A DNA stretch of 64,000 nt from Candidatus Parcubacteria bacterium (GTDB lineage: Bacteria; Patescibacteriota; Patescibacteriia; Patescibacteriales; UBA12465): the NCBI GenBank assembly GCA_023444045.1, contig JAEZRQ010000002.1, positions 76,102 to 140,101 on the forward strand. The letters are read 5' to 3'. The notes under the pieces were generated by a model, which was not told where the DNA came from, made no database searches, and was given only the letters and a program-made list of their open reading frames with translations. This document shows positions 3,560 to 57,730 of the stretch, piece after piece (positions within the stretch are counted from its first letter, which is position 1; each line of letters begins with the position of its first letter). Position numbers and translations under genes: made by a program.

Positions 3560-6010
3560 TTATTTGATTACAATACTAAGAAGTTTTCCTTTAACATAAA
3601 CTACTTTAACTATTTCCTTGCCATCAAGCCATTTTTTAACATTTAAGTCAGCTAGAGCCAGCTCTTTAGCATCTTCCTCAATGATATCAGCTGGTGCTTC
3701 AATGGTAGCCCGAATCTTACCATTAATCTGAACAGCTAAAGTAAAAGAATCATCCTGGAGTAAAACCTTGTCATATTCTGGCCAAGAAGATTTAAGAATA
3801 CTTTCTTTATTACCAATTCTCTCCCATAATTCTTCAGCTAAGTGCGGGGCAAATGGCTCTAAAATTCTAATAAATAATTCTAAATTTTTAAGAGTTAGTG
3901 GCCAAGAATTATTTTTGTTTTTAAAATCATAGAGATGATTAACAAAGATCATCAGAGCGGAAATAGCGGTATTATATTTAAAATCTTCAATGTCATTTCC
4001 CACCTTTAAGATTGTTTTATGTAGTAAAGATATGGTTTTTTTATCATCTACTCGTGGCAAATCCTGTATTAAGTCACTAACTTTATCCAGAAAACGAACG
4101 ACACCAATAATACCCTGGCTATTCCAAGGTTTCATATCTTCCAGCGGCCCCATAAACATTTCATAAAGACGTAAAGAGTCAGCGCCATGTGCTTTAACTA
4201 AGTCATCTGGATTAACTACATTGCCTTTTGATTTACTCATTTTATTACCATCCTCGCCCAAAATAATACCTTGATGACGAAGTTTCAAAAATGGTTCATC
4301 AAAATTTAAATAACCATATTTCTTTAAAACTTTAGTAAAGAAACGAGCATATAATAAGTGTAAAACGGTATGTTCAGCGCCACCAAAATATAAATCCACC
4401 GGCAACCATTTAGCTAATTTTTTTGGGTCAGCAAAAAGTTGAGCATTCTTAGGATCAGCATAACGCAAATAATACCAGGAAGAACAAACAAAAGTATCCA
4501 TAGTGTCACTTTCTCTACGTGCCTTAGCACCACACTTAGGGCAATTAACTTGGTGGAATTCTTCAGAATATTTTAAAGGTGATTCTCCTGTTGGACGAAA
4601 GTCTACATCAGTTGGTAATTTAACCGGTAAATCTTCAAGTGGTACAGGAACTTCGCCACAAGAGCTACAGTAAATAATTGGGATTGGTGCCCCCCAATAA
4701 CGTTGACGAGAAACCAACCAATCACGCAGGCGATAGTTAATCGTTTTTTCTCCTTGATTGGTGCGACTTAAAAAGTCGGTCATTCTTTGTCGAGCTTCAG
4801 CTGATTTTAACCCAGTAAATTCACCGGAATCAACCAGCAGACCGTCATCACAATAAGGCTCTTCTCCTAAATTATTTTCCGAAACGATAGAGTTTCTAAT
4901 CTCTAAATCATATTTTTTAGCAAACTCAAAATCACGTTCATCATGAGCCGGAACAGCCATCACCGCCCCAGTACCATAATTAGCTAAAACATAATCGGCC
5001 ACAAAAACTTTAACTTCTTCATTATTAAAAGGATTAATGGCGCTAATTCCCTCTAAAATAACTCCGCTTTTATCTTTATTTAAATCTGTTCGCTGCAGTT
5101 CCGTTTTAGCAGAAACTTCATTAATATATTTTTCAACGACTGCTCTATTTTTTGTCAGTGGTAAAAGTTCTTTAGTTAAAAGGCTCTCCGGAGCTAAAAC
5201 GACATAAGTGCAGCCAAAGATAGTATCAACTCTAGTGGTAAAAACTCTAATTTTTTTCTCACCAGTTAAGTTGTCAGCAACGATAGTAAAATCAACTAAA
5301 GCCCCTTCGCTACGACCAATCCAGTTACGCTGAGCGGTTTTAGTAGAATCAGGCCAATCTAAATTATCAAGTCCGGAAAGTAAACCAGAAATTTCACGAC
5401 CTTCGTGCTTTTGGTCTTCTACAAAATCAGTAATCTTAAAGAACCACTGTTCTAAGTCCTTTTGAATTACGGAATTACCACAACGCTCACACACCCCGCC
5501 TTCGGCTTGTTCACGGGCCAGAACCGTCTGACAACTATCACACCAATTTACTTTGGCTTTCTTTTTATAAGCTAAACCGTTTTGATACATTAAAAGAAAC
5601 ATCCACTGCGTCCATTTATAATATTCTGGATCAGAAGTCATAAGTACCCGTTCCCAATCATAGGAAAAACCCAGCGAATCAATTTGTTTAATAAAATTAG
5701 CACTAGCTGTCTTAGTGGTTTCATTGGGGTGAATGCCGGTTTTAATAGCGTAATTTTCGGCCGGCAAACCAAAGGCATCAAAGCCTTGAGGGTGAAGAAC
5801 GTTAAAACCTTTAGCCCGAGAGTATCTGGAATAGATATCAGTTGCAGTATATGACTCAACATGACCGGCGTGTAGTCCAGCCCCAGATGGATAAGGAAAC
5901 ATGTCTAAAATGAAACGTTTTGGCTTGTCGCTTGTCTCATCGGTTTGGTAAGCCTTAGTTTCCCGCCAACGAGCTTGCCATTTTTTATCAATATTTTGAT
6001 GGTCGTACAT
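3560..6010 (-). CDS. leuS: leucyl-tRNA synthetase
   Basis: 816 aa with a HIGH-type motif (HAGHV), KMSKS, and Cys-cluster insertions typical of LeuS. Confidence 0.95.
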   Translation of the reverse strand: MYDHQNIDKKWQARWRETKAYQTDETSDKPKRFILDMFPYPSGAGLHAGHVESYTATDIYSRYSRAKGFNVLHPQGFDAFGLPAENYAIKTGIHPNETTKTASANFIKQIDSLGFSYDWERVLMTSDPEYYKWTQWMFLLMYQNGLAYKKKAKVNWCDSCQTVLAREQAEGGVCERCGNSVIQKDLEQWFFKITDFVEDQKHEGREISGLLSGLDNLDWPDSTKTAQRNWIGRSEGALVDFTIVADNLTGEKKIRVFTTRVDTIFGCTYVVLAPESLLTKELLPLTKNRAVVEKYINEVSAKTELQRTDLNKDKSGVILEGISAINPFNNEEVKVFVADYVLANYGTGAVMAVPAHDERDFEFAKKYDLEIRNSIVSENNLGEEPYCDDGLLVDSGEFTGLKSAEARQRMTDFLSRTNQGEKTINYRLRDWLVSRQRYWGAPIPIIYCSSCGEVPVPLEDLPVKLPTDVDFRPTGESPLKYSEEFHQVNCPKCGAKARRESDTMDTFVCSSWYYLRYADPKNAQLFADPKKLAKWLPVDLYFGGAEHTVLHLLYARFFTKVLKKYGYLNFDEPFLKLRHQGIILGEDGNKMSKSKGNVVNPDDLVKAHGADSLRLYEMFMGPLEDMKPWNSQGIIGVVRFLDKVSDLIQDLPRVDDKKTISLLHKTILKVGNDIEDFKYNTAISALMIFVNHLYDFKNKNNSWPLTLKNLELFIRILEPFAPHLAEELWERIGNKESILKSSWPEYDKVLLQDDSFTLAVQINGKIRATIEAPADIIEEDAKELALADLNVKKWLDGKEIVKVVYVKGKLLSIVIK

Positions 6011-13410: not shown

Positions 13411-15225
13411 TTAATTATTTGTTAAATTAGGCCTTAAGTCAACTAAGCGCAATTGCGCTTCCCGGCGCCCATTAAATTCGTTTATTTCTAAATAATAGAC
13501 AGCATCAACCAAATCACCAACCGAAACAGCTTTATACTCCTGAGCGGAACCGAAAGAAATTGCCCAAATTCCTTTAGCGAAATTTTTCTCAGCGGATGAT
13601 AAACGAAATTTAATATGTTGATTATCAAATCCCAGGACTACGATTTCATCAACCCTTAAGCGATAGCTAACGAATTTCGGTTGTTGGTTATTCTGTCCAT
13701 AGGGAGCCAGCAGAAGGGTCTCCTCAATTAAATTTAAATTAATATCATCAATACTTAACTCCGCCTCAATTCTAAGACGTGGTGATAACTCCTTGCCACT
13801 TAATTCCCTCTTGGCAATAGTTAGAATTTTCTCTTTAAATTTTTCCAAACGCTCTTCGCTCTCCACCGAAAAACCACAAGCCATTGGGTGCCCACCATAC
13901 TTATCTAAAAATTCTGAAGCCTCATTGATACTGGCAATTAAATTTAATTCTTCAATTGAACGGCCCGAAGCTTTAAAAGAAGTTTTTGTTTTTCCATCTT
14001 CCTCCTCAGTAATTCTAGAAATAATTAAAGTTGGTCGGTAATATTTTTCACAAATTCGACCAGCCACCAAGCCAATAACCCCTTCATTCCAAATTTGATC
14101 ACAACTAGCCATGCCAATAATAATTGGCGGGATATTATTAGGGTCTATCTGCTCCTCCACTTGAAAAATAATATCTTCGGTAATTTTTTGGCGATCGGTA
14201 TTTCTTTGATTAAGCTCTGCCGCTAAATCTGCAGCATCTATTTCGTTATCGGTAGTTAAAAGAGCAAAAGCATTATTGGCGTGACCCAAACGACTAGCCG
14301 CATTTAAACGAGGTCCTATTTGCCAACCAACATTCCAAGCTTCTAACTTCTTGTTATTACCGCCCTTAGAGAGCTTGATTAATTCATTAAGCCCTAAACG
14401 GCGCCCCTGATTTAAAAATTTAAGTCCCTGTTTTACTAACAATCTATTTTCGCCCAATAAAGATACCATATCAGCGATGGTGCCAACTGCTACTAAATCT
14501 AAACACTTCTCAATAATTAGTTTCTTTTGCGGAGTTGATATTTTTGCCTTATAAACTAAAGCACTAACCAGTTTAAAAGAGACCCCGACTCCAGCTAAAT
14601 ATGGCCAGGGGTATGAATCATTTTTATCTGCTGGATTAATATATAGACATTGAGGCAGGTCACTTTCCGCTTCCGGTAAAGTATGGTGATCGGTGACAAT
14701 AATATCCAGTCCATTATTTTTTGCATAAGCCACTTCTTCTTTGTTTCTAATACCATTATCTACTGTAATAAGCAGTGAAGCCCCCTGCTTAATTAACTGA
14801 TCAATTGCACTGATATTTAAGCCATAGCCTTCACTCACTCTATCAGGCAGATAAACCTCTACTTTAGCTTGTAATATTTTTAAAGTTTCAAAAAGGATGG
14901 CTGATGAAGTAACACCGTCAGCATCATAGTCACCATAGACAATAATCTTCTTTCCCTCTTTTATATTATTAATAATAAGATCAACTGCTGCGGCCATATC
15001 ACGAAATAAAAAAGGATTGTAGAAACTTAGATCTGGTACGCCGGCAATATCTAATACTTTTTCACTTGGCAAAATATCATATAAAAAAGACTTAATCGCT
15101 TCTTCCTCCTTGATATCCCTGTTATAGAGCAACTGTAAAATCGTTTTAGATAGCCCAAGATTTTGATTCAAAAAACCATCTGGAGCAGCTTCATATAATT
15201 GCCATTTTTTAGAAACTTGTATCAT
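13411..15225 (-). CDS. recJ: single-stranded-DNA-specific exonuclease RecJ
   Basis: DHH family motifs (DYDADGVTS, VTDHH) and 604 aa of RecJ-like architecture. Confidence 0.9.
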   Translation of the reverse strand: MIQVSKKWQLYEAAPDGFLNQNLGLSKTILQLLYNRDIKEEEAIKSFLYDILPSEKVLDIAGVPDLSFYNPFLFRDMAAAVDLIINNIKEGKKIIVYGDYDADGVTSSAILFETLKILQAKVEVYLPDRVSEGYGLNISAIDQLIKQGASLLITVDNGIRNKEEVAYAKNNGLDIIVTDHHTLPEAESDLPQCLYINPADKNDSYPWPYLAGVGVSFKLVSALVYKAKISTPQKKLIIEKCLDLVAVGTIADMVSLLGENRLLVKQGLKFLNQGRRLGLNELIKLSKGGNNKKLEAWNVGWQIGPRLNAASRLGHANNAFALLTTDNEIDAADLAAELNQRNTDRQKITEDIIFQVEEQIDPNNIPPIIIGMASCDQIWNEGVIGLVAGRICEKYYRPTLIISRITEEEDGKTKTSFKASGRSIEELNLIASINEASEFLDKYGGHPMACGFSVESEERLEKFKEKILTIAKRELSGKELSPRLRIEAELSIDDINLNLIEETLLLAPYGQNNQQPKFVSYRLRVDEIVVLGFDNQHIKFRLSSAEKNFAKGIWAISFGSAQEYKAVSVGDLVDAVYYLEINEFNGRREAQLRLVDLRPNLTNN

Positions 15226-32430: not shown

Positions 32431-32529
32431 TTTTATAGGTTTTCTAAATATGCTGATATGTTTATTATATCAGTTTTTCTTCTCTGAGACGACTAATTAT
32501 TAGAATTAATTAATCAGCTCGGAAAGGAA

Positions 32530-32553
32530 GCGGACAGTTGAACGACTGTCCGC
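32530..32553 (-). repeat. fourth copy of the GUUCAA-loop hairpin (no ribozyme attached), followed by UUCCUUUCC
   Basis: Minus strand reads GCGGACAG-UCGUUCAA-CUGUCCGC then UUCCUUUCC. The loop and trailing motif match the three cassette hairpins, but the stem sequence is completely different. Confidence 0.6.
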
Positions 32554-32956: not shown

Positions 32957-33063
32957 AGCACTATTGCCTGGATTATTCTGAAACTAATTAATTTAATAAG
33001 ATTCAAAATAATCCAAACAATAATTTGAGAATAAAAAATGAAAAGATTTTTTTTAAAGAACAT

Positions 33064-33116
33064 TTCCTTTTCGTCGTTTCCGACTCATCAGCCAAGATAC
33101 ACATCTTGGGAAGGAA
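33064..33116 (-). ncRNA. type III hammerhead self-cleaving ribozyme (copy A)
   Basis: Minus strand reads UUCCU-UC^CCAAGAU-GUGU-AUCUUGG-CUGAUGA-GUCG-GAAA-CGAC-GAAA-AGGAA. The full catalytic core is present (CUGAUGA, GAA, A15.1-U16.1, C17). Stems I and II are closed and stem III is open. Confidence 0.9.
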
Positions 33117-33222
33117 GAGCAGATTTGAACTATCTGCTCTCTATTAAACTATTTTATCCATCCGATTTCGCTCTTAGGATTTAAGGCGCTCAATTTAATG
33201 TCAAGAGGGGACAAAATAATAT
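33117..33222 (-). repeat. intergenic cassette A: conserved ~80-nt module + GUUCAA-loop hairpin
   Basis: The module starts immediately after the stop codon (TAG|ATATTATTTTGTCCCCTCTTGACATTAAATTGAGCGCCTTAAATCCTAAGAGCGAAATCGGATGGATAAAATA). The hairpin GAGCAGAU-AGUUCAA-AUCUGCUC follows. The module is near-identical to cassette B. Confidence 0.8.
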
Positions 33223-33366
33223 CTATTTTTTTCTTACTACCAAGGCAACAAAAATAATTGACACCACGGCTAATGGAATAACACTAAAATTGTTATTATA
33301 GCCCATGAGATAGTTTAAGCCCCACATGCAAGCAAGACCTAAGATAATAATTATTATTTTTTTCAT
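33223..33366 (-). CDS. 47-aa hydrophobic peptide (below ORF-track cutoff)
   Basis: MKKIIIIILGLACMWGLNYLMGYNNNFSVIPLAVVSIIFVALVVRKK*. The conserved cassette begins directly after its stop codon, exactly as it does after the 529-aa gene. Confidence 0.5.
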   Translation of the reverse strand: MKKIIIIILGLACMWGLNYLMGYNNNFSVIPLAVVSIIFVALVVRKK

Positions 33367-33412
33367 TTTATTTGCCTACTCTATTACAGGTTTTCGGCTT
33401 CCCCTGATTTTT

Positions 33413-36400
33413 TTATACTAGTCCGGCTCTGCGCAGAGCGTCGGCTAAGAGGCCATCGCTTGAAGTTTCGCTAGACTCACCATCCACCTCATCTTTACCT
33501 TCTTCATATTGGTAATTTCCAAAATGATAATCATATACATAATATTTGACATCATTTGGGTCGGCCCCTACGAAGAAATCTAAGCCACCAAGCTCCGTCA
33601 GGTGGTCGTACACTCGCGCCCGTCCGCAGTGCCCGACAATATGTTCGTCGAGTTTTTCGGCGGGAAGATTTTCTACATTCTTGACAAATTCAAGTGTGCG
33701 ATTTAAATCTCCACCGAAAGCGTTTAAAAGATAGCGAGGTAACTTGTTTCTTTTTTCAAGCTCCTCTCTTTCTTTTTGACGCACTTTGAACAATTGACTC
33801 AGCTCCGCAATCATTTCTTCTATCTCACGACAGATATTATTAACGTCCGTAAAATCACCTTTTTGCAAAGCTGATTTTACTTCCGAAAGCTGATTGCGAA
33901 TTTCGCGGATTTTCTCGGAAATAAGTTCAGGCTCAACCTCAGTTAAAGTTTTTTCAAAACTTTCTTCGGCATTAATAATTAAAGCATTAGCTTTCTCATA
34001 TTCAACACGAAGATTGTTTTTTATTTCCTCAGCTTTAGTTTCCATCCCTCCTACTCGCTCGGAAGAATTTTCAAGAGTTAACCCCTCTATCATTTCCATT
34101 CTAAGCATTTCAAGGTGATTTTTCAGCGCATTTCCCAGCTCGGTCAGCCCCCAACAATTACGAAAGATTTCTTCATTGGGGATCGTCAAAGCTTCAGAAA
34201 CTTGATTGTTAAAATTACTAACCAAATTTCTTTTCGCTCTTTCAATTTGCTCCTGACGAGCTTTTTCTATTCTTGCTCGGTGTTCACCCAAGGTTTGAGT
34301 ATAACCATCGCAAGAAAGTTTTAGCTCGCGACCACTGGGGAGCGAAACACTCTCCGGTTTGGTTTCAAAAATAAAATTTTCTGAGACCTCAATCTTGGCA
34401 ATAAAATCACCATAATAATGAGTATATACAACAGAAAATTCTTTATCTTCAATCTCTATAACTAAAGGATTTTTTTCCTCAATAGAAGCTATCTCCTCTG
34501 GTGAAATTAATTGAGATAAATTTATTCTTAAATCATCTTGACTTATCTCTTTCTCAAGGAGATTTTCAAGTTGAGTAAAACCAAGTACCTTCCAAGGCTC
34601 CAATACTTTGCAGTATTGTTCGCCAATAACTTCGCTATTGTTTTTTGATTCAATAGCTCCGCCACTACGCGCCCAATATGCATCATATTGGTTCATAATT
34701 TCTGTGTTATCATGATAGAGATTTCTTACAACTTCCGAAGAAGCGTATCTACTCATCATATTGTTCACAAAAATTTTGAAAGCCTCAGCGCTCCACGGAG
34801 CAGTCTTTGCCACCCGAGCAATTTCCATATCGTTAAAAACCGTAATATGGTCTTCAACAACACAATTTTGCTCATCATCCCAATGAAGGTTTTCAACCTT
34901 CTCTGAGACCAGATGTGGCGCCACTTCAGCTAACCAGGCTGGGTCCACTTTTGATGCCATACTTACCAAATTAAGAGTCATAGACCCTCTTCTGGTAGCA
35001 ATCTGCAGATCAAAAGGGATTCCTACGATCCAATCAGGAGTAGATCTCTCTACCACTGAACTAGACCCCAACTCACGGTCAGTGTCATCTCCGTTGCGAT
35101 ATGACCCATACTGGTTTTTATATAGATGGTCTACCATACCGGCACAAACAGCTTTCAGGATGTTTTCCCTTTTACCATTTGTACCAAAACGGAAATGTCC
35201 TTTCAAGGCCTCAGATAAAAGATGTCGAATTTCTTTGGCGCGATAAAAATCACGCAAAGCAATCCCTTTTTCTTTCATCTCGACTTCACTCATTGTGCGA
35301 GATATTTCCCACACTTTGAGCTGAGCCATGATGTCAGACTCTCTTTCATCCGGCACCATACCACGCCAATCTGGGCGGTCGGGTCGATTGCGACTCGGCG
35401 GAGGAACAGTAATGCCGTCCATCTCCATAATCGCAGCAACAGTCAAGACGTCACTTACGACGCCAAGACGATCAGCTTCAATTAACATCCGACCATATTT
35501 CACCGAAACCGGAAGCTTGTTTACCAAGCGACCAATTCCAGTTACCTTGCCTTCGCTAGTCATACAGCCCAAACCAATTAAGGTCTTGCGAGCATCACTG
35601 ATGTCTGATTTAGCGGGCTGATGGAAAAATTCCATCATCTCCATATCAAACCCAGCGATTGCCAGACGCAAAACTGTTTGGTCCAAGCGTTTACGCAGAA
35701 TCTCGGCCACCGGGAAGTCGGGCCTGTTTGAACTCGAGCAGTGATCAATATAGATTCCTGCTTTTGTTCTTCCTGCGCGCCCCTTTCTTTGCTTCGAATC
35801 GGCCAGTGAAATTGGTTTCAGGTATAAACCCTCAACTCCATCAACTAGCTCAATCCGACGTTCAAGTCCGGAATCCACGACGGCATCAATGTCATCAATT
35901 GTCACACTGGTTTGCGCAACATTTGTCGACACTACAACCTTCGGCTTACCATAGTGCGCAAAGCACTTGGCTTGCTCATCTGGTGTGAGTTGTCCGTGAA
36001 GTGGCAGGACTACCGCCGAAACATTCAACTGCGCCAGGCGGTTAATAGTCTCATTGATTTCCTGCTGTCCGGGTTGGAAAACCAGAACATTGTGACCTTC
36101 AGCAACTAAAGTTGCAACATCGGACTCAATGTTATAACCGGCCGTTTTTTCCTCAACCGTGAATGTTCGCCCTGGGACAGAAATGATTGGTGCATTATTA
36201 AAAAATGCACTCAACTTTTCCGACTCCAAAGTCGCACTCATGAGAACTACTTTCATAGTTGAGCCAGTGGCAATTTGAGATTTCACCCAGGCCACCAGAA
36301 CTTCCATGTTTTCGTTCCACTCATGCACCTCATCGAGGACGAGAATGCCTCGATTCTGACCCATAAGCTCACGCACAAGTGCGAGGCCATCGGTGCAAAA

Positions 36401-36688
36401 TAGACAACGGGTTGCGGAACTATCCGCTCGTTCTACCGCGGTGCGGTAGCCGATGGTAACCCCAATTTTTTCGCCCATCTCATAAGCCACGCGAGCAGCA
36501 ACAGAACGGGCGGCGAGTCGGCGGGGTTGAGTCACGACTAAGTCATAACCTGCCTCCAGCAAGTACTGCGGTACTTGCGTGGATTTCCCCGCTCCAGTTT
36601 CGGCCGTAATGACCGTTACTGGATTTTCTTTGATGCTCTTCAGAATCTCATTCCGAAACGCATCAATGGGTAATATTGTTTTTTTCAT
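33413..36688 (-). CDS. DEAH-box (HrpA/HrpB-like, SF2) ATP-dependent RNA helicase with long coiled-coil C-terminal extension
   Basis: Motifs I ETGAGKST, Ia TQPRRLAARSVA, II DEVH, III SAT, V TNVAQTSVTI and VI QRKGRAGR. About 450 aa of K/E-rich C-terminal region follow. Confidence 0.85.
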   Translation of the reverse strand: MKKTILPIDAFRNEILKSIKENPVTVITAETGAGKSTQVPQYLLEAGYDLVVTQPRRLAARSVAARVAYEMGEKIGVTIGYRTAVERADSSATRCLFCTDGLALVRELMGQNRGILVLDEVHEWNENMEVLVAWVKSQIATGSTMKVVLMSATLESEKLSAFFNNAPIISVPGRTFTVEEKTAGYNIESDVATLVAEGHNVLVFQPGQQEINETINRLAQLNVSAVVLPLHGQLTPDEQAKCFAHYGKPKVVVSTNVAQTSVTIDDIDAVVDSGLERRIELVDGVEGLYLKPISLADSKQRKGRAGRTKAGIYIDHCSSSNRPDFPVAEILRKRLDQTVLRLAIAGFDMEMMEFFHQPAKSDISDARKTLIGLGCMTSEGKVTGIGRLVNKLPVSVKYGRMLIEADRLGVVSDVLTVAAIMEMDGITVPPPSRNRPDRPDWRGMVPDERESDIMAQLKVWEISRTMSEVEMKEKGIALRDFYRAKEIRHLLSEALKGHFRFGTNGKRENILKAVCAGMVDHLYKNQYGSYRNGDDTDRELGSSSVVERSTPDWIVGIPFDLQIATRRGSMTLNLVSMASKVDPAWLAEVAPHLVSEKVENLHWDDEQNCVVEDHITVFNDMEIARVAKTAPWSAEAFKIFVNNMMSRYASSEVVRNLYHDNTEIMNQYDAYWARSGGAIESKNNSEVIGEQYCKVLEPWKVLGFTQLENLLEKEISQDDLRINLSQLISPEEIASIEEKNPLVIEIEDKEFSVVYTHYYGDFIAKIEVSENFIFETKPESVSLPSGRELKLSCDGYTQTLGEHRARIEKARQEQIERAKRNLVSNFNNQVSEALTIPNEEIFRNCWGLTELGNALKNHLEMLRMEMIEGLTLENSSERVGGMETKAEEIKNNLRVEYEKANALIINAEESFEKTLTEVEPELISEKIREIRNQLSEVKSALQKGDFTDVNNICREIEEMIAELSQLFKVRQKEREELEKRNKLPRYLLNAFGGDLNRTLEFVKNVENLPAEKLDEHIVGHCGRARVYDHLTELGGLDFFVGADPNDVKYYVYDYHFGNYQYEEGKDEVDGESSETSSDGLLADALRRAGLV

Positions 36689-36794
36689 TTTTTTATTTTT
36701 TTGGTTTTATCAACTACTCAGTAATTTGAGTAACTAATAGAGCCAAAAAAATAGGTAAAATGATAAACCTACTAACTATTTATTTTTTAACGTT

Positions 36795-36847
36795 CTCCTT
36801 TTCGTCGTTTCCGACTCATCAGCTAGGATGCACATCCTAGGAAGGAA
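36795..36847 (-). ncRNA. type III hammerhead self-cleaving ribozyme (copy B)
   Basis: UUCCU-UC^CUAGGAU-GUGC-AUCCUAG-CUGAUGA-GUCG-GAAA-CGAC-GAAA-AGGAG. Stem I has two compensatory base-pair changes relative to copy A. Confidence 0.9.
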
Positions 36848-36951
36848 GAGCAAGTTTGAACGACTTGCTCTTTTTTGAACTTATTTTATCCATCCGATTT
36901 CGCTCTTAGGATTTAAAGCGCTCAATTTAATGTCGAGAGGGGACAAAATAT
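36848..36951 (-). repeat. intergenic cassette B: conserved ~80-nt module + GUUCAA-loop hairpin
   Basis: TAA|ATATTTTGTCCCCTCTCGACATTAAATTGAGCGCTTTAAATCCTAAGAGCGAAATCGGATGGATAAAATA, then the hairpin GAGCAAGU-CGUUCAA-ACUUGCUC (compensatory relative to A). Confidence 0.8.
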
Positions 36952-38541
36952 TTACGCCTGGAGTTTATCGTAGGCTCCAGCAAACCCGCGGCCAGCGTCA
37001 CCGTAAGCCTGATATAGGCCATTGGCAGCTGCCCAGCCGTTGGGATACGTCGGGCGACCGTCAACCATCGCAACTTCACCGAGAAATTCGGCAACAACCG
37101 GTTTAGGTCCAGACAGGTTTACCTTATCTGGGAAACGTTTGTCGCCTTTGGCAAGATATGCGGTTCCAGTCATCACCCCCGCCTCAACGAGAAAAGGAAT
37201 AGGACCTAAATCGCGAACATCAGCCACCTGAATGTCGCCCAATGTTACGGTTCTGTCCGGATTTTTCAGCAGCTTCACAGCCGCTTCAATCTCTGTCATT
37301 GCTTCAGCCTCCGATGAAACGTTTTCGCGTTTCATGATTTCCGGAAGACGCATAGCGAGCACTTCAGCTGCAGTAACACCAGGACACTGTCCGGCGTAAG
37401 CAGCGGCCAAGCAATGGTCGGCGGCGGCGATTACCCTGTCTTCTTGCGTTGGTTCAATTCTCAAAAATTTCAGGAGTTGACCCAAACTGGAAGCTTCCAG
37501 GTATTGAGCTGGTGGCAAACCGAATCCAGCGTTACCAGGATTATGATGGTCGCACTGAGCGACAATCGTAAGTCCAGCCGCGGCAGACGGAGCACATTCA
37601 AATATGATGCACTCCAGGCAATCCGTAGATTCACCTGCTTCGCTATCTATCTGATATCCGTCCGCCCGGTAAGCCGTCATGGGGTTACATTTTTCACCAC
37701 CCATGGTTGCGGTAGCTAAAAGTAAACCGTGCTGAATCGCAATTTTTCTGGCCCGTTGCTCCTCGATGTCGGGAGCACCAAAAATGATTACTCGCGGACA
37801 AAATGTTTCGTGGATGAAATTTTCCAAAGCGGTTTGGTCTGCGTATCCACCCCAGAAGGCATTAGTTTTAGTCGTAAGTCCTCCAGTCCAACCGCCAGGA
37901 AATTTGGCATCAATAGCCTTCACCACAGCAGGTGTGCCATAATAATTACTTTCACCATCTCCTGATAAAATCAAAAGATTTTGGCGAGTGCCCTGGGTTT
38001 CAAAAACTCTGTCAGCAATCGGCGCCGTTTTAGAATGTGCACAACGCACAACAACTAATCCGTTCGTGAATTTTTCCTGAGCCGCGACTGCCCGCTCGGC
38101 TTCAATCTCCTGCTCTGAAGTAATCCCCTGGCAAGAGCGGTCGAAAGCGCGCACTTGACGTATTTCTTCGATGGAAGCACCAGAGGCAACAAGCCCCGGG
38201 ATATACCCTTCGTCGTTAATGGCAATAAGAATATCTTCGCGGGTCGGTTTTACACCGATTAATTCAAGCACCTGCAGAATACTCTGCGGATTTCCGCTAA
38301 AATCACCATGATGATCAATTATCAAAGCATTAGTTGGCAGCTCAATATCAACCACCAATTCAATGAGAACAGGGATTTTACCAGCAGTTGTAACAGCTTT
38401 AATTGCGTCACTATAAGCTGAAGCTTTCGCACCCCAACCTAAATTGCCATTTATAACCTCGGCGCTAACCTCGGTTAAAATTTTTTCAATTTGCATCATT
38501 TCAGCATCTTTGCCTCCTAAAAAAAATACGAACTTTTTCAT
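36952..38541 (-). CDS. hypothetical two-domain protein with duplicated DHH-type motif (possible phosphoesterase)
   Basis: 529 aa and very GC-rich. IIDHHGD is at aa 74-80 and CDHHNPG at aa 330-336, each preceded by a similar beta-strand-like start (FVFFLGGKDAEM and VIIFGAPDIEEQ). Family not recognised. Confidence 0.6.
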   Translation of the reverse strand: MKKFVFFLGGKDAEMMQIEKILTEVSAEVINGNLGWGAKASAYSDAIKAVTTAGKIPVLIELVVDIELPTNALIIDHHGDFSGNPQSILQVLELIGVKPTREDILIAINDEGYIPGLVASGASIEEIRQVRAFDRSCQGITSEQEIEAERAVAAQEKFTNGLVVVRCAHSKTAPIADRVFETQGTRQNLLILSGDGESNYYGTPAVVKAIDAKFPGGWTGGLTTKTNAFWGGYADQTALENFIHETFCPRVIIFGAPDIEEQRARKIAIQHGLLLATATMGGEKCNPMTAYRADGYQIDSEAGESTDCLECIIFECAPSAAAGLTIVAQCDHHNPGNAGFGLPPAQYLEASSLGQLLKFLRIEPTQEDRVIAAADHCLAAAYAGQCPGVTAAEVLAMRLPEIMKRENVSSEAEAMTEIEAAVKLLKNPDRTVTLGDIQVADVRDLGPIPFLVEAGVMTGTAYLAKGDKRFPDKVNLSGPKPVVAEFLGEVAMVDGRPTYPNGWAAANGLYQAYGDAGRGFAGAYDKLQA

Positions 38542-38659
38542 TTTTTTATTTTTTTACCTCCTAACACATGTTCGGATTATTCTAAAACCCAAAATAATAA
38601 TTGAGATTTAAAATAATCCAAACAAATGCTTGATAAAAAAATATTTTATTTAAATGAAC

Positions 38660-38712
38660 TTCCTTTTCGTCGTTTCCGACTCATCAGCCAAGACACACAT
38701 CTTGGGAAGGAA
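38660..38712 (-). ncRNA. type III hammerhead self-cleaving ribozyme (copy C)
   Basis: UUCCU-UC^CCAAGAU-GUGU-GUCUUGG-CUGAUGA-GUCG-GAAA-CGAC-GAAA-AGGAA. The core is intact, with one U-G wobble in stem I. Confidence 0.9.
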
Positions 38713-38735
38713 GAGCAGATTTGAACTATCTGCTC
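38713..38735 (-). repeat. GUUCAA-loop hairpin (copy C)
   Basis: GAGCAGAU-AGUUCAA-AUCUGCUC sits directly 5' of hammerhead C. Here the upstream ~200 nt differ from the A/B module. Confidence 0.75.
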
Positions 38736-38939: not shown

Positions 38940-39185
38940 TTATGACCAAACTTCTTTGATAATTTCAATCGGAATGCCAAGAATATCTAAATCTGATGGG
39001 GTTAACCCTTCAGATTTTAATTTCTTAGCTGTAGCTAAGGCCTTAGATCTCTCCGATTTTATTCGGAAATCTTCGACCTCTCTGCTGCAAGCATCACAGT
39101 AGCCGTCAGTGCCGCCCATATAATGGCCAGTCGCATTAGCTCCACAGCGCTTACAGGAACCAAAATATCCCGCCATAGCTTTCAA
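38940..39185 (-). CDS. small Zn-ribbon protein (CxxC…CxxC) with helical C-terminus
   Basis: CKRC…17 aa…CDAC. The track start is a TTG, and an in-frame ATG at 39176 gives 78 aa. Confidence 0.55.
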   Translation of the reverse strand: MKAMAGYFGSCKRCGANATGHYMGGTDGYCDACSREVEDFRIKSERSKALATAKKLKSEGLTPSDLDILGIPIEIIKEVWS

Positions 39186-39940
39186 AAATCTTACTATAAA
39201 AATTTCTAGAAGCTATAGCTGATTTTTTAAAATTTAAGGAACAACTCTTCCGAAGAAGTTTCTAAGTCCCAAACTTGTTCAAGGTTTAGAGGCTTAGCCG
39301 ATCTCTTCGTAAGAAAACGGTTGAAGAAACGATTGTTCTTGGAACTTACTCGTCGCTTACATTACGCAAGCTAATTGGGCCACCAAATACTTAATCAAAG
39401 TCTTTCGTGAGTTCCGGTTTGCAACGGACCTAACTACTTAACTAATTTCTTCTACCCACTTTTGTGGAGCAAACTAACAGAGCTGTAAATCTTAGGACAT
39501 GGACTCTCTCCGTCCACCTCAATCTCCTAAAATTTTCAATCACCTGTTTGGTGCTGCTTATTCCCTAAGCAACTTGGGAAGATTATGTACTAATCTTTTT
39601 TATGAATAGAATAGGCAATCATGAAGGGGAAAATTGCTTTATTAACTGAGTTAAACTAGGCATGGGGCGTCTAGTCATCTTAATCTCAATGTTTTTTGGC
39701 AGTTTATATATTGAGCTTCAACTTAAGTCTTGTGGCTAAAGCAGAGCTAAACCATCTTTATTCCTCTTCATAACTGCCTATTCTAAAAAAAGATAATAAA
39801 TGGAAACGGGTTAAACCTCATATAAGGAGATAAGCCGCTTTCACCTATTATCTTTATAGTTGAATGCTTTGACTTAATATCTGGCTCTCTCCTTCCATTT
39901 ATTAATTGTTTCTTTTGTTTGAATGTACTACCATCTTAAC
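39186..39940 (-). ncRNA. ~750-nt ORF-free, hairpin-rich leader / candidate large non-coding RNA of the island operon
   Basis: No ORF of 60 aa or more occurs in any frame. It lies downstream of a near-consensus minus-strand promoter. Many strong local helices are visible, for example an 11-bp AAAUUUUAGGA/UCCUAAGAUUU stem, an 11-bp AAUAAAUGGAA/UUCCAUUUAUU stem, and UUCG- and GNRA-like loops. The strand is inferred from the promoter and operon context. Confidence 0.4.
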
Positions 39941-39947
39941 TGTCTAA

Positions 39948-39976
39948 AGTATAGCATTATTTTATACTATTGTCAA
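39948..39976 (-). promoter_or_regulatory. near-consensus sigma70-type promoter driving the island operon
   Basis: Minus strand reads TTGACA (39976..39971), a 17-nt spacer, then TATACT (39953..39948). The -35 is embedded in the palindrome TATTGtCAATA. Confidence 0.55.
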
Positions 39977-40072
39977 TACTAAATAAGACATTTTTAGACT
40001 AATGTAAGTAAAGATGCTGACAATATTCATCTATATCCGCTTATTTATTATTAAATATTGTCATTTTATAAG

Positions 40073-40101
40073 TTGACATTTTTATTTTAAGGCGCTATAA
40101 T
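40073..40101 (+). promoter_or_regulatory. consensus sigma70-type promoter for the TrmB-like regulator gene
   Basis: TTGACA, a 17-nt spacer, then TATAAT (both perfect), about 50 nt upstream of the ATG at 40155. Confidence 0.65.
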
Positions 40102-40154
40102 ATAGACATAAATATTAAAATTTGTAAAGTTATCCACAGTCTAAAAATAAAAAT

Positions 40155-57213: not shown

Positions 57214-57287
57214 GGGCAATTAGCTCAGTTGGTTAGAGCGCAACACTGATAATGTTGAGGTCGGAGGTTCGAATCCTCCATTGCCCA
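57214..57287 (+). tRNA. tRNA-Ile (GAU)
   Basis: Acceptor GGGCAAU/AUUGCCC, anticodon loop CUGAUAA, T-loop UUCGAAU. Confidence 0.92.
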
Positions 57288-57313
57288 CCGAATCATTTTT
57301 AAATGATTAGTAT

Positions 57314-57386
57314 CGCGGGGTAGAGCAGTTGGCAGCTCGTCGGGCCCATAACCCGAAGGTCGTCGGTTCGAATCCGACCCCCGCAA
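57314..57386 (+). tRNA. initiator tRNA-fMet (CAU)
   Basis: C1xA72 mismatch (CGCGGGG…CCCCGCA) and three G:C pairs closing the anticodon stem. The anticodon loop is CCCAUAA, so position 33 is C. Confidence 0.88.
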
Positions 57387-57407
57387 CAAGTTTTTTTAAA
57401 AACTTAT

Positions 57408-57730
57408 GCCTCGGTAGCTCAGTGGTAGAGCAAAGGACTGAATTTCGGTCCGTCCTGTAGAAACACAGGAATGAAAATCGGGTGAATTCGGAGAAACCTT
57501 AATTATTAAAATTTTTAATAAAAGGCAATTCCGAGCCAAGCCTTAACTGGGATAAAATGTTAAGGAAGGTGTAGAGACTAGCGGGTGAGCCCAACAATAA
57601 CCCCGCCGCGAGCGCCCGACTCCGTCTTTGTAGAAATATAAACGGAGATGATATAGTCCGATCCTTAAGGAAACTTAAGAAAATACTAAGGAAAATCCTT
57701 GTGTCGTCAGTTCGATTCTGACCCGGGGCA
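57408..57730 (+). tRNA. tRNA-Phe (GAA) interrupted by a group I intron in the anticodon loop
   Basis: Exon 1 is 57408..57439 and exon 2 is 57691..57730. Joined, they give a 72-nt cloverleaf with acceptor GCCUCGG/CCGGGGC, anticodon loop CU|GAAAA and T-loop UUCGAUU. Confidence 0.85.
57440..57690 (+). ncRNA. group I self-splicing intron (251 nt)
   Basis: P1 forms between the exon end GGACU and the internal guide GGUCC, with a U.G wobble at the splice site. The intron ends in G. There are P7-like strands AGACUA…AUAUAGUC and a terminal CUUAAG-GAAA-CUUAAG hairpin. The core resembles bacterial tRNA group I introns. Confidence 0.8.

Follow-up and report, generated by a model that had tools for sequence, protein, structure and literature searches.

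We analysed a 64,000-nucleotide stretch (the window) of contig JAEZRQ010000002.1 from a Candidatus Parcubacteria genome, the reverse strand of which carries an Open Reading Frame (ORF) of 529 amino acids (aa). Sequence comparison identifies its product as a rare head-to-tail fusion of two old paralogous gene families. The N-terminal half (N-half) clearly belongs to NrN, a family of type III CRISPR phosphodiesterases associated with CorA, and the C-terminal half (C-half) is assigned, by its profile and predicted structure, to an unnamed sister family of NrN that is found mostly on mobile elements (phages and plasmids). The protein is probably a tandem NrN-type phosphodiesterase, metal-dependent and with two sites, for dinucleotide-sized substrates. 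It is not a new kind of enzyme, because its family can now be named (NrN type); what is new here is the tandem architecture of two NrN-type modules, the unannotated sister family borne by mobile elements, and the non-CRISPR, RNA-helicase-linked, ribozyme-delimited setting in Patescibacteria. A first-pass annotation, made from the letters of the window, had described a phosphoesterase-like protein of two related halves, and its interpretation is essentially right. Positions are those of the window, and the features are collected in Table 1.

The ORF starts with ATG behind an AGGAGG Shine-Dalgarno ribosome-binding site. It is a real gene, since several independent metagenome contigs encode the identical 529-aa protein and five full-length homologues are 61–69% identical to it. 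It is GC-rich, as had been noted at first sight, with a GC content of 0.44 in the N-half and 0.52 in the C-half, compared with a window mean of 0.36. The whole protein has no match in Pfam at E ≤ 1, including DHH (PF01368) and DHHA1 (PF02272), and no match in NCBIfam. Its AlphaFold2 (AF2) model has a predicted local distance difference test score (pLDDT) of 92.5 and a predicted template modelling score (pTM) of 0.78. Relatives of the N-half (alignment A3) are called family A and relatives of the C-half (alignment A2) family B; L-numbers (e.g. L005) denote the metagenome or genome loci compared and P-numbers (e.g. P0003) homologous proteins. The source names of relatives are Patescibacteria or Candidatus Paceibacterota.

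The N-half matches the PDB entries of NrN (9LQ9, 9LQA and 9LQC) at E 4.5e-26 over aa 2–204 with about 32% identity. Two PADLOC models also match it, C3a116 (E 6.1e-67, model positions 2–232 of 235) and DHH_CorA (E 3.8e-46). C3a116 corresponds to cluster 116 in Shah et al. 2018, linked there to cluster 29, which is CorA (PMC6546367). The first-pass annotation had proposed a comparison of the predicted structure with DHH folds, and in Foldseek the full-length model has its best PDB match in 9lqc_A of NrN (E 3.8e-20, template modelling (TM) score 0.83 when normalised to NrN, root mean square deviation 2.7), followed by GdpP (E 1.3e-6), DhhP (E 4.7e-6) and PggH (E 1.9e-4). The N-half is thus like NrN in sequence, fold, size (about 250 aa) and catalytic residues; the difference is that here two modules stand in one chain, in a Patescibacteria island beside an RNA helicase. 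To our knowledge, NrN has so far been known only as the CorA-partnered SAM-AMP (S-adenosylmethionine-AMP) phosphodiesterase of type III CRISPR systems. The NrN of B. fragilis is specific for SAM-AMP, does not cleave pApA or cA2-6, and is inactivated by D85A/H86A/H87A (PMC10600005).

The neighbours of family A are of two sorts. Some members are linked to CRISPR: the family includes NrN-CorA fusions and one RAMP fusion, and CorA-adjacent genes are present in L168, L176 and L178 (43–47% identity to the N-half). Among the 80 best metagenomic loci, CorA is absent near most family-A genes. Homologues of CorA and RAMP were looked for in the 64-kb window and the first Patescibacteria loci compared (L005–L017, L063–L065) without a match, and the association with CorA and a type III CRISPR-Cas locus that marks NrN was not seen within them. 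An HrpA-like helicase recurs beside NrN-like genes in the window, L005, L015, L017, L097, L098, L155 and L157, and a KH-domain protein recurs beside family A in L099, L149, L161, L164, L167 and L169; in P0070 the KH protein is fused to family A. The picture of NrN is widened by these close relatives, which in the reduced genomes of Patescibacteria stand with RNA-binding proteins and without CorA or RAMP nearby. A family-A gene is also common in human-gut contigs of up to 497 kb (L101–L128, L139, L166, L172), with 45–46% identity to the N-half; the host has a GC content of about 0.52 and the gene shows no GC anomaly. No hammerhead, helicase, KH or CorA neighbour was detected at these human-gut loci.

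The C-half has no match in Pfam, NCBIfam, PHROGs or PADLOC (the PHROGs search covered both halves and returned nothing), and a direct search with the family B profile gives only a marginal match to NrN (E 0.055). The AF2 model of the C-half alone reaches a pLDDT of 93 and a pTM of 0.86, and its best solved fold is NrN (9lqa; E 1.9e-5, TM-score 0.50–0.57). The next folds are family II pyrophosphatase, exopolyphosphatase, DhhP, PggH, NrnA and RecJ, all of the DHH superfamily. The C-half is therefore alike to NrN in fold, and it is alike in motif pattern too. Neither profile nor structure searches placed the protein in a non-phosphoesterase family, which the first-pass annotation had named as the result that would speak against it; NrN is nearest for both halves. 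The family, which could not be assigned by eye, is now NrN for the N-half, while the C-half still belongs to an unnamed NrN-like sister family.

Family B is present on 43 IMG/VR viral contigs, in phage-like metagenome contigs beside baseplate, terminase-like, endolysin and phage-helicase genes, and in gammaproteobacterial genomes and Patescibacteria. Large plasmids of Pseudomonas, Variovorax and Burkholderia carry it as well, always annotated as "hypothetical protein"; WP_073937610.1 of a P. aeruginosa plasmid is one such member. In one plasmid the gene directly before it is a DUF4942 gene, and TrfA and a cytosine methyltransferase are close by. No recurrent partner emerged when its neighbours were clustered over 75 loci outside the Patescibacteria operon. 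With tblastn, the C-half found no match in 50,697 GenBank phage records, and in a fold search of BFVD it gave only weak matches to "DHH family phosphohydrolases" of giant viruses and phages (best E 1.4e-3). Because phages and large plasmids carry it, this sizeable family, for which Pfam, NCBIfam, PHROGs and PADLOC have no model, is a concrete candidate for an enzyme that counters CRISPR or signalling. Like the viral ring nuclease AcrIII-1 and the phage SAM-AMP lyase, family B is small, stand-alone and borne by phages or plasmids, and it is tied to the clearance of CRISPR signals, though only by its kinship to NrN; the folds and chemistry of AcrIII-1 and the SAM-AMP lyase are unrelated to it. 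Together, the two families offer leads on the turnover or subversion of SAM-AMP-type signals and on nucleotide recycling in ultra-small bacteria.

The two halves open with FVFFLGGKDAEM (N-half) and VIIFGAPDIEEQ (C-half), and the first-pass annotation had pointed to a similar N-terminal strand and acidic segment in front of each DHH motif. BLASTP of aa 1–247 against aa 248–529 gives 26% identity over 172 aa (E 0.006), with the first strand and its acidic DxE, the DHH and the motif IV "AA(N/A)D" all in register. When the profiles of families A and B are compared by hhalign, the probability is 98.6% (E 7.9e-16, 225 columns), and the hidden Markov models (HMMs) of the two families weakly detect the members of each other. 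Since BLASTP, hhalign and the HMM cross-matches agree, the halves are true paralogues, and the DHH common to both is not a coincidence. Conservation and fold likewise exclude a chance DHH tripeptide.

It had also been suggested that the protein arose by internal duplication of a phosphoesterase-like domain. The homology of the two phosphoesterase modules is borne out, but they were not duplicated in place; they are long-separated paralogues that were fused. Exhaustive HMMER searches (E ≤ 1e-3) collected 1979 related clusters at 50% identity, of which only one (P0003) has the two-module architecture, and six fused proteins are known. Outside the fusion, families A and B are stand-alone proteins of about 250–310 aa, sometimes encoded by adjacent genes. 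For example, in a related Patescibacteria genome (L005/L061) the family-A and family-B genes are separate neighbours on either side of a hammerhead, and the helicase comes next. This single fused cluster and the separate adjacent genes of L005 argue for fusion instead of duplication. A recent internal duplication was rejected, because the two halves share no more than about 26% identity and stand-alone genes are much closer to each of them. Identity among the fused homologues is about 80% in the C-half, compared with 48–53% in the N-half, and one of them, P0006, has an intact C-half beside an N-half in which D12, the DHH motif and D110 are lost. The C-half is therefore the more constrained module. 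Families A and B are thus able to fuse into a protein with two predicted active sites.

Conservation was counted in 135 family-A and 51 family-B relatives, and residues were mapped from the NrN alignment, in which the chain index equals the native numbering plus one. The DxE, the DHH and the motif IV Asp are kept in 94–100% of these sequences, so the DHH residues, whose conservation among homologues the first-pass annotation had wanted checked, are almost universal. The catalytic set of NrN (E21, D85/H86/H87 and D119) corresponds to E14, D76/H77/H78 and D110 in the N-half. Judged from these alignments, both halves retain the full set of catalytic and metal-binding residues. Family B has invariants of its own, namely H376, C377, C386, SSLGQ at 351–355, D441, K473 and R518-GFAG. 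Both halves have the DHH and the motif IV Asp, motif I is DxE instead of DxD, as in NrN, and no GGGH motif of DHHA1 was seen in the sequences or alignments; together with the missing Pfam matches, this agrees with the early remark that the canonical DxD and GGGH are not evident. A paralogue of RecJ or NrnA was also rejected. The RecJ of the window (13411..15225) is a canonical DHH+DHHA1+RecJ_OB protein that matches both Pfam models, and it has no detectable sequence similarity to the 529-aa protein, which had rightly been called distinct from it.

The DHH/DHHA1 enzymes NrnA, the GdpP catalytic domain, PggH and DhhP hydrolyse pApA, pGpG or nanoRNA to 5'-nucleoside monophosphates (5'-NMPs). The 529-aa protein has the superfamily fold of these enzymes (Foldseek E 1e-6 to 2e-4) together with their DHH and motif IV Asp; it differs from them in matching neither Pfam DHH nor DHHA1, in having DxE for DxD, in showing no GGGH of DHHA1, and in a smaller C-terminal lobe, with low global TM-scores (0.2–0.37). 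Each module has a DHH catalytic domain, and a small C-terminal lobe takes the place of DHHA1; the fusion would form a covalent pseudo-heterodimer with two active sites. Because of the precedents of NrN, GdpP and PggH, each site is expected to use divalent metal (Mn2+-type) to hydrolyse a 3'-5' phosphodiester in a dinucleotide-sized substrate. The product would be a 5'-NMP, as for NrN with SAM-AMP, and a processive nuclease acting on long RNA or DNA is not expected.

As for the biological role, we tentatively favour a part in an RNA-centred module, where the protein would clear away nucleotide conjugates or very short pieces of RNA; we give this slightly less than an even chance. It is favoured because the helicase and KH partners of non-CRISPR family A are repeated and because no nearby CorA or RAMP was found. 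Several points weigh against it. Many of the NrN-like cassettes in Patescibacteria, e.g. in L130, L138 and L142, lack a nearby helicase. The family is not proven to be a general nanoRNase, because the B. fragilis enzyme spares pApA and cA2-6 (PMC10600005). The substrate class cannot be read from phylogeny, because the CorA-linked NrNs (L168, L176, L178) are as close to the N-half, at 43–47%, as the helicase- and KH-linked ones. Moreover, a function in conflict fits better than housekeeping, because the island is GC-anomalous and variable and family B occurs on mobile elements.

In a less likely explanation, SAM-AMP or a similar nucleotide second messenger is the substrate of at least one of the two modules, and the protein either regulates a host defence system encoded elsewhere in the genome or is an anti-defence enzyme that came from a mobile element and became fixed in the island. 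The best matches of the N-half are indeed CorA-associated CRISPR accessory models, the sole characterised relative is SAM-AMP-specific, and CorA and RAMP fusions exist among the relatives. The 43 IMG/VR contigs, the phage-like contigs and the Pseudomonas and Variovorax plasmids with family B point in the same direction, as does the plasmid family-B gene that stands beside orphan methyltransferase genes. The island itself is GC-anomalous, variable and prophage-like, and single genes flanked by hammerheads are typical of prophages, e.g. the anti-restriction gene ardA (Perreault et al. 2011, PMC3088659). However, CorA and RAMP homologues were not found in the window or the first Patescibacteria loci, the flanks are housekeeping genes, and diverged genomes have kept the position downstream of TrmB. 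In IMG/VR, no close relative from family A could be confirmed, and family B has neither a recurrent defence or anti-defence neighbour nor a PADLOC or PHROGs match.

It is improbable that only one module is catalytic, with the other a pseudo-enzyme that acts as a scaffold for dimerisation or senses a ligand. The lost N-half motifs of P0006 beside an intact C-half, and the lower identity of the N-half among fused homologues, would fit such a division of labour. All catalytic residues of both halves, however, are present here and in P0002–P0005; a pseudo-enzyme half is unlikely for the 529-aa protein and seems to have arisen in P0006.

The gene had been placed next to a DEAH RNA helicase and between ribozymes, and both statements hold: the neighbour has the DEAD, Helicase_C and HA2_C domains, and three hammerheads were found. 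By sequence and predicted folding, each gene unit in the window is bounded by type III hammerheads, which are predicted ribozymes. The Rfam scores of HHR1 and HHR3 are under the gathering score (48.5), but the hammerhead core (CUGAUGAG ... GAAA) is present in all copies and the minimum-energy fold of each hammerhead in the window is a three-way hammerhead junction. The three helices are kept in copies from four genomes, where 94% of the cells are paired, in comparison with 34–52% in slid controls, and 7 pairs are changed on both sides. The three hammerheads of the window are near-identical, each with an (A/C)GTTCAA-loop hairpin ahead of it; a fourth hairpin is located at 32524–32552 without an intact hammerhead. 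Delimited in this way, the mRNA of the 529-aa ORF is predicted to be excised as an RNA of 1865 nt, and the other processed RNA is predicted at 3731 nt. Hammerhead-like core patterns adjoin NrN-like genes in many loci, and in L142 three matches of the core pattern punctuate a GC-rich cluster that includes an AAA_5 ATPase.

Directly after the stops of NrN-like and helicase genes there is a conserved 3' motif, D3 (core CUCUCGACAUUAAAUUGAGCGCUUUAAUCCCUAAGAGCGAAAUCGGAUGG), with a length of about 57–70 nt. In L138, L005, L015 and L097 it follows the stops of homologous genes in copies of 92–94% identity, compared with 47–84% for the proteins themselves. Downstream of the stop, the order is D3, the (A/C)GTTCAA-loop hairpin and the next hammerhead. 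D3 has no Rfam match, and RNAalifold gave no convincing structure for eight copies. Just after the helicase stop, a DUF805b RNA motif was found at 33373–33407 (-) (Rfam RF02914, 49.7 bits, above the gathering score), and immediately downstream of it is an unannotated hydrophobic ORF of 47 aa, MKKIIIIILGLACMWGLNYLMGYNNNFSVIPLAVVSIIFVALVVRKK, at 33223–33366 (-); a further DUF805b copy is at L009:3309-3341.

Prophages likewise have several hammerheads around single genes or short blocks, which predict gene-length mRNAs (PMC3088659). The present case differs in being type III, with a conserved hairpin and the 3' motif of ~57 nt, and in bracketing GC-rich genes at a conserved chromosomal site in Patescibacteria. 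The ribozyme-bounded layout is an unusually clean natural case of gene expression punctuated by hammerheads. Some DHH enzymes (NrnA) have 3'-phosphatase activity on pAp, and this activity, the three covariation-supported hammerheads that delimit the transcripts and the hammerhead-like cores of many loci could be taken to mean that the protein processes 2',3'-cyclic phosphate or 5'-OH ends left by hammerheads or other cleaved RNAs after unwinding by the helicase; we regard this as very unlikely, since hammerheads also flank unrelated cargo (the helicase, a lipoprotein, the AAA_5 ATPase cluster of L142) and so look like expression or cassette elements instead of substrates, only two isolated opposite-strand regex matches (L047, L059) occur near phage and plasmid family B among the loci scanned, and we know of no DHH enzyme that opens 2',3'-cyclic phosphates on long RNA.

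Table 1. Features of the 529-aa ORF and its surroundings (window positions unless a locus is named)
Feature	Position	Strand	Evidence or conservation
529-aa ORF: family A–family B fusion, predicted tandem NrN-type DHH phosphodiesterase	36952..38541	-	homologues; AF2
N-terminal module, aa 1-250, NrN family (family A)	37792..38541	-	PDB, PADLOC, Foldseek
C-terminal module, aa 251-529, unannotated NrN-like sister family (family B)	36952..37791	-	hhalign, AF2
GGKDAEM, aa 9-15, motif I variant DxE; D12/E14 = NrN D19/E21	38497..38517	-	D and E each 129/135
IIDHHGD, aa 74-80, N-half DHH motif III = NrN D85/H86/H87	38302..38322	-	D 127/135, H 134/135, H 134/135
AINDEGYIP, aa 107-115, motif IV Asp D110 = NrN D119	38197..38223	-	D 135/135
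FGAPDIEE, aa 254-261, C-half DxE (D258, E260)	37759..37782	-	invariant in A2; 48/51
CDHHNPG, aa 330-336, C-half DHH (D331-H332-H333)	37534..37554	-	invariant in A2; 49-50/51
AAADHC, aa 372-377, C-half motif IV	37411..37428	-	D375 51/51, H376 50/51, C377 47/51
HHR1, type III hammerhead upstream of the ORF	38659..38713	-	Rfam RF00008 42.2 bits, E 1.1e-6; predicted cleavage 38706/38705
HHR2, type III hammerhead between the ORF and the helicase gene	36794..36848	-	predicted cleavage 36841/36840
HHR3, type III hammerhead downstream of the helicase unit	33063..33117	-	Rfam 39.1 bits, E 8e-6; predicted cleavage 33110/33109
Hairpin with CGTTCAA loop, immediately 5' of HHR2	36849..36871	-	repeat families D1 and D4
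Conserved 3' motif D3, begins at the ORF stop codon	36878..36952	-	97% identical to copy 33146-33220
D3 copies elsewhere	L138:8057-8132; L005:8877-8949; L015:9062-9133, 13444-13518; L097:1856-1928, 5525-5592
HrpA/HrpB-like DEAH-box RNA helicase, 1091 aa, co-oriented	33413..36688	-	Pfam DEAD, Helicase_C, HA2_C

The helicase matches TIGR01967 HrpA (E 6e-94, 316 bits) and TIGR01970 (E 1e-78, 266 bits), in both cases below the curated cut-off (723 and 546, respectively). The flanks of the island are housekeeping genes (RuvC, YebC, FtsK, Mur ligase and RpoB), and TrmB also flanks it. In many Patescibacteria genomes the same layout recurs: a giant GNAT-domain protein and a divergent TrmB gene are followed, after a non-coding stretch of about 1 kb, by at least one NrN-like gene, in some cases together with the helicase. 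The island content differs between genomes, which have A alone, B alone, A and B, an AB fusion or additional small ORFs. NrN-like genes in these islands are GC-rich (0.44–0.67) compared with their AT-rich flanks (0.27–0.45). Islands with a single GC-rich NrN-like gene (0.51–0.67 GC; flanks 0.27–0.45) were seen in L005, L007, L015, L017, L130, L138, L142, L146, L158, L162 and others.

Two linked proposals are speculative and unlikely: family B may be an unrecognised phosphodiesterase of mobile elements that destroys SAM-AMP-like immune signals, and NrN-type genes in Patescibacteria may travel as ribozyme-delimited GC-rich cassettes. A cassette would run in the order hammerhead, 5' untranslated region, ORF, conserved 57-nt 3' motif, hairpin and next hammerhead, and the cassettes would be stacked in a variable island downstream of the TrmB regulator. 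If so, family B would be the DHH-type counterpart of the viral ring nucleases and SAM-AMP lyases, and the cassettes would be a new kind of RNA-processed, possibly RNA-mobilised or circularised, array.

Accessory ORFs of 191, 177, 317, 296 and 120 aa lie between NrN-like genes and the helicase. None of them has a Pfam match, and the only relationship seen is that of the 191-aa protein of L015 to the 177-aa protein of L098. For the gene that precedes the fused homologue in L098 (L098:24-563), a precomputed Pfam label "Gad2" (PF26128) was not reproduced by hmmscan at E ≤ 0.01 and was given no weight. In the window, an ORF of 81 aa at 38940–39185 (-), upstream of the first hammerhead, has zinc-ribbon-like Cys pairs (CKRCG...CDAC); L015 and L017 have ORFs of 78–90 aa at the same position, without detectable similarity to it. 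Between the divergent TrmB gene and the operon lies about 1 kb of non-coding DNA (39186–40154), with a similar gap of about 0.8–1.7 kb at the same position in related genomes. Its sole Rfam match is a weak, sub-threshold STnc410. Conserved blocks at about 39944–40112 and 39245–39314 are common to the window, L005 and L015, and palindromes in the block at about 39944–40112 could be operators or a promoter.

Elsewhere in the window, a group I intron (Rfam 96 bits) was found at 57430–57680 (+), directly after tRNA-Ile (57214–57289) and tRNA-Met (57314–57387); ARAGORN did not call the gene that hosts it. In L009, the giant GNAT protein and the antisense TrmB occur as a pair three times on one contig (459–3060, 5583–7222 and 9628–13016), each copy followed by a non-coding gap and different cargo, which suggests that the GNAT/TrmB pair is a repeated or mobile module there.

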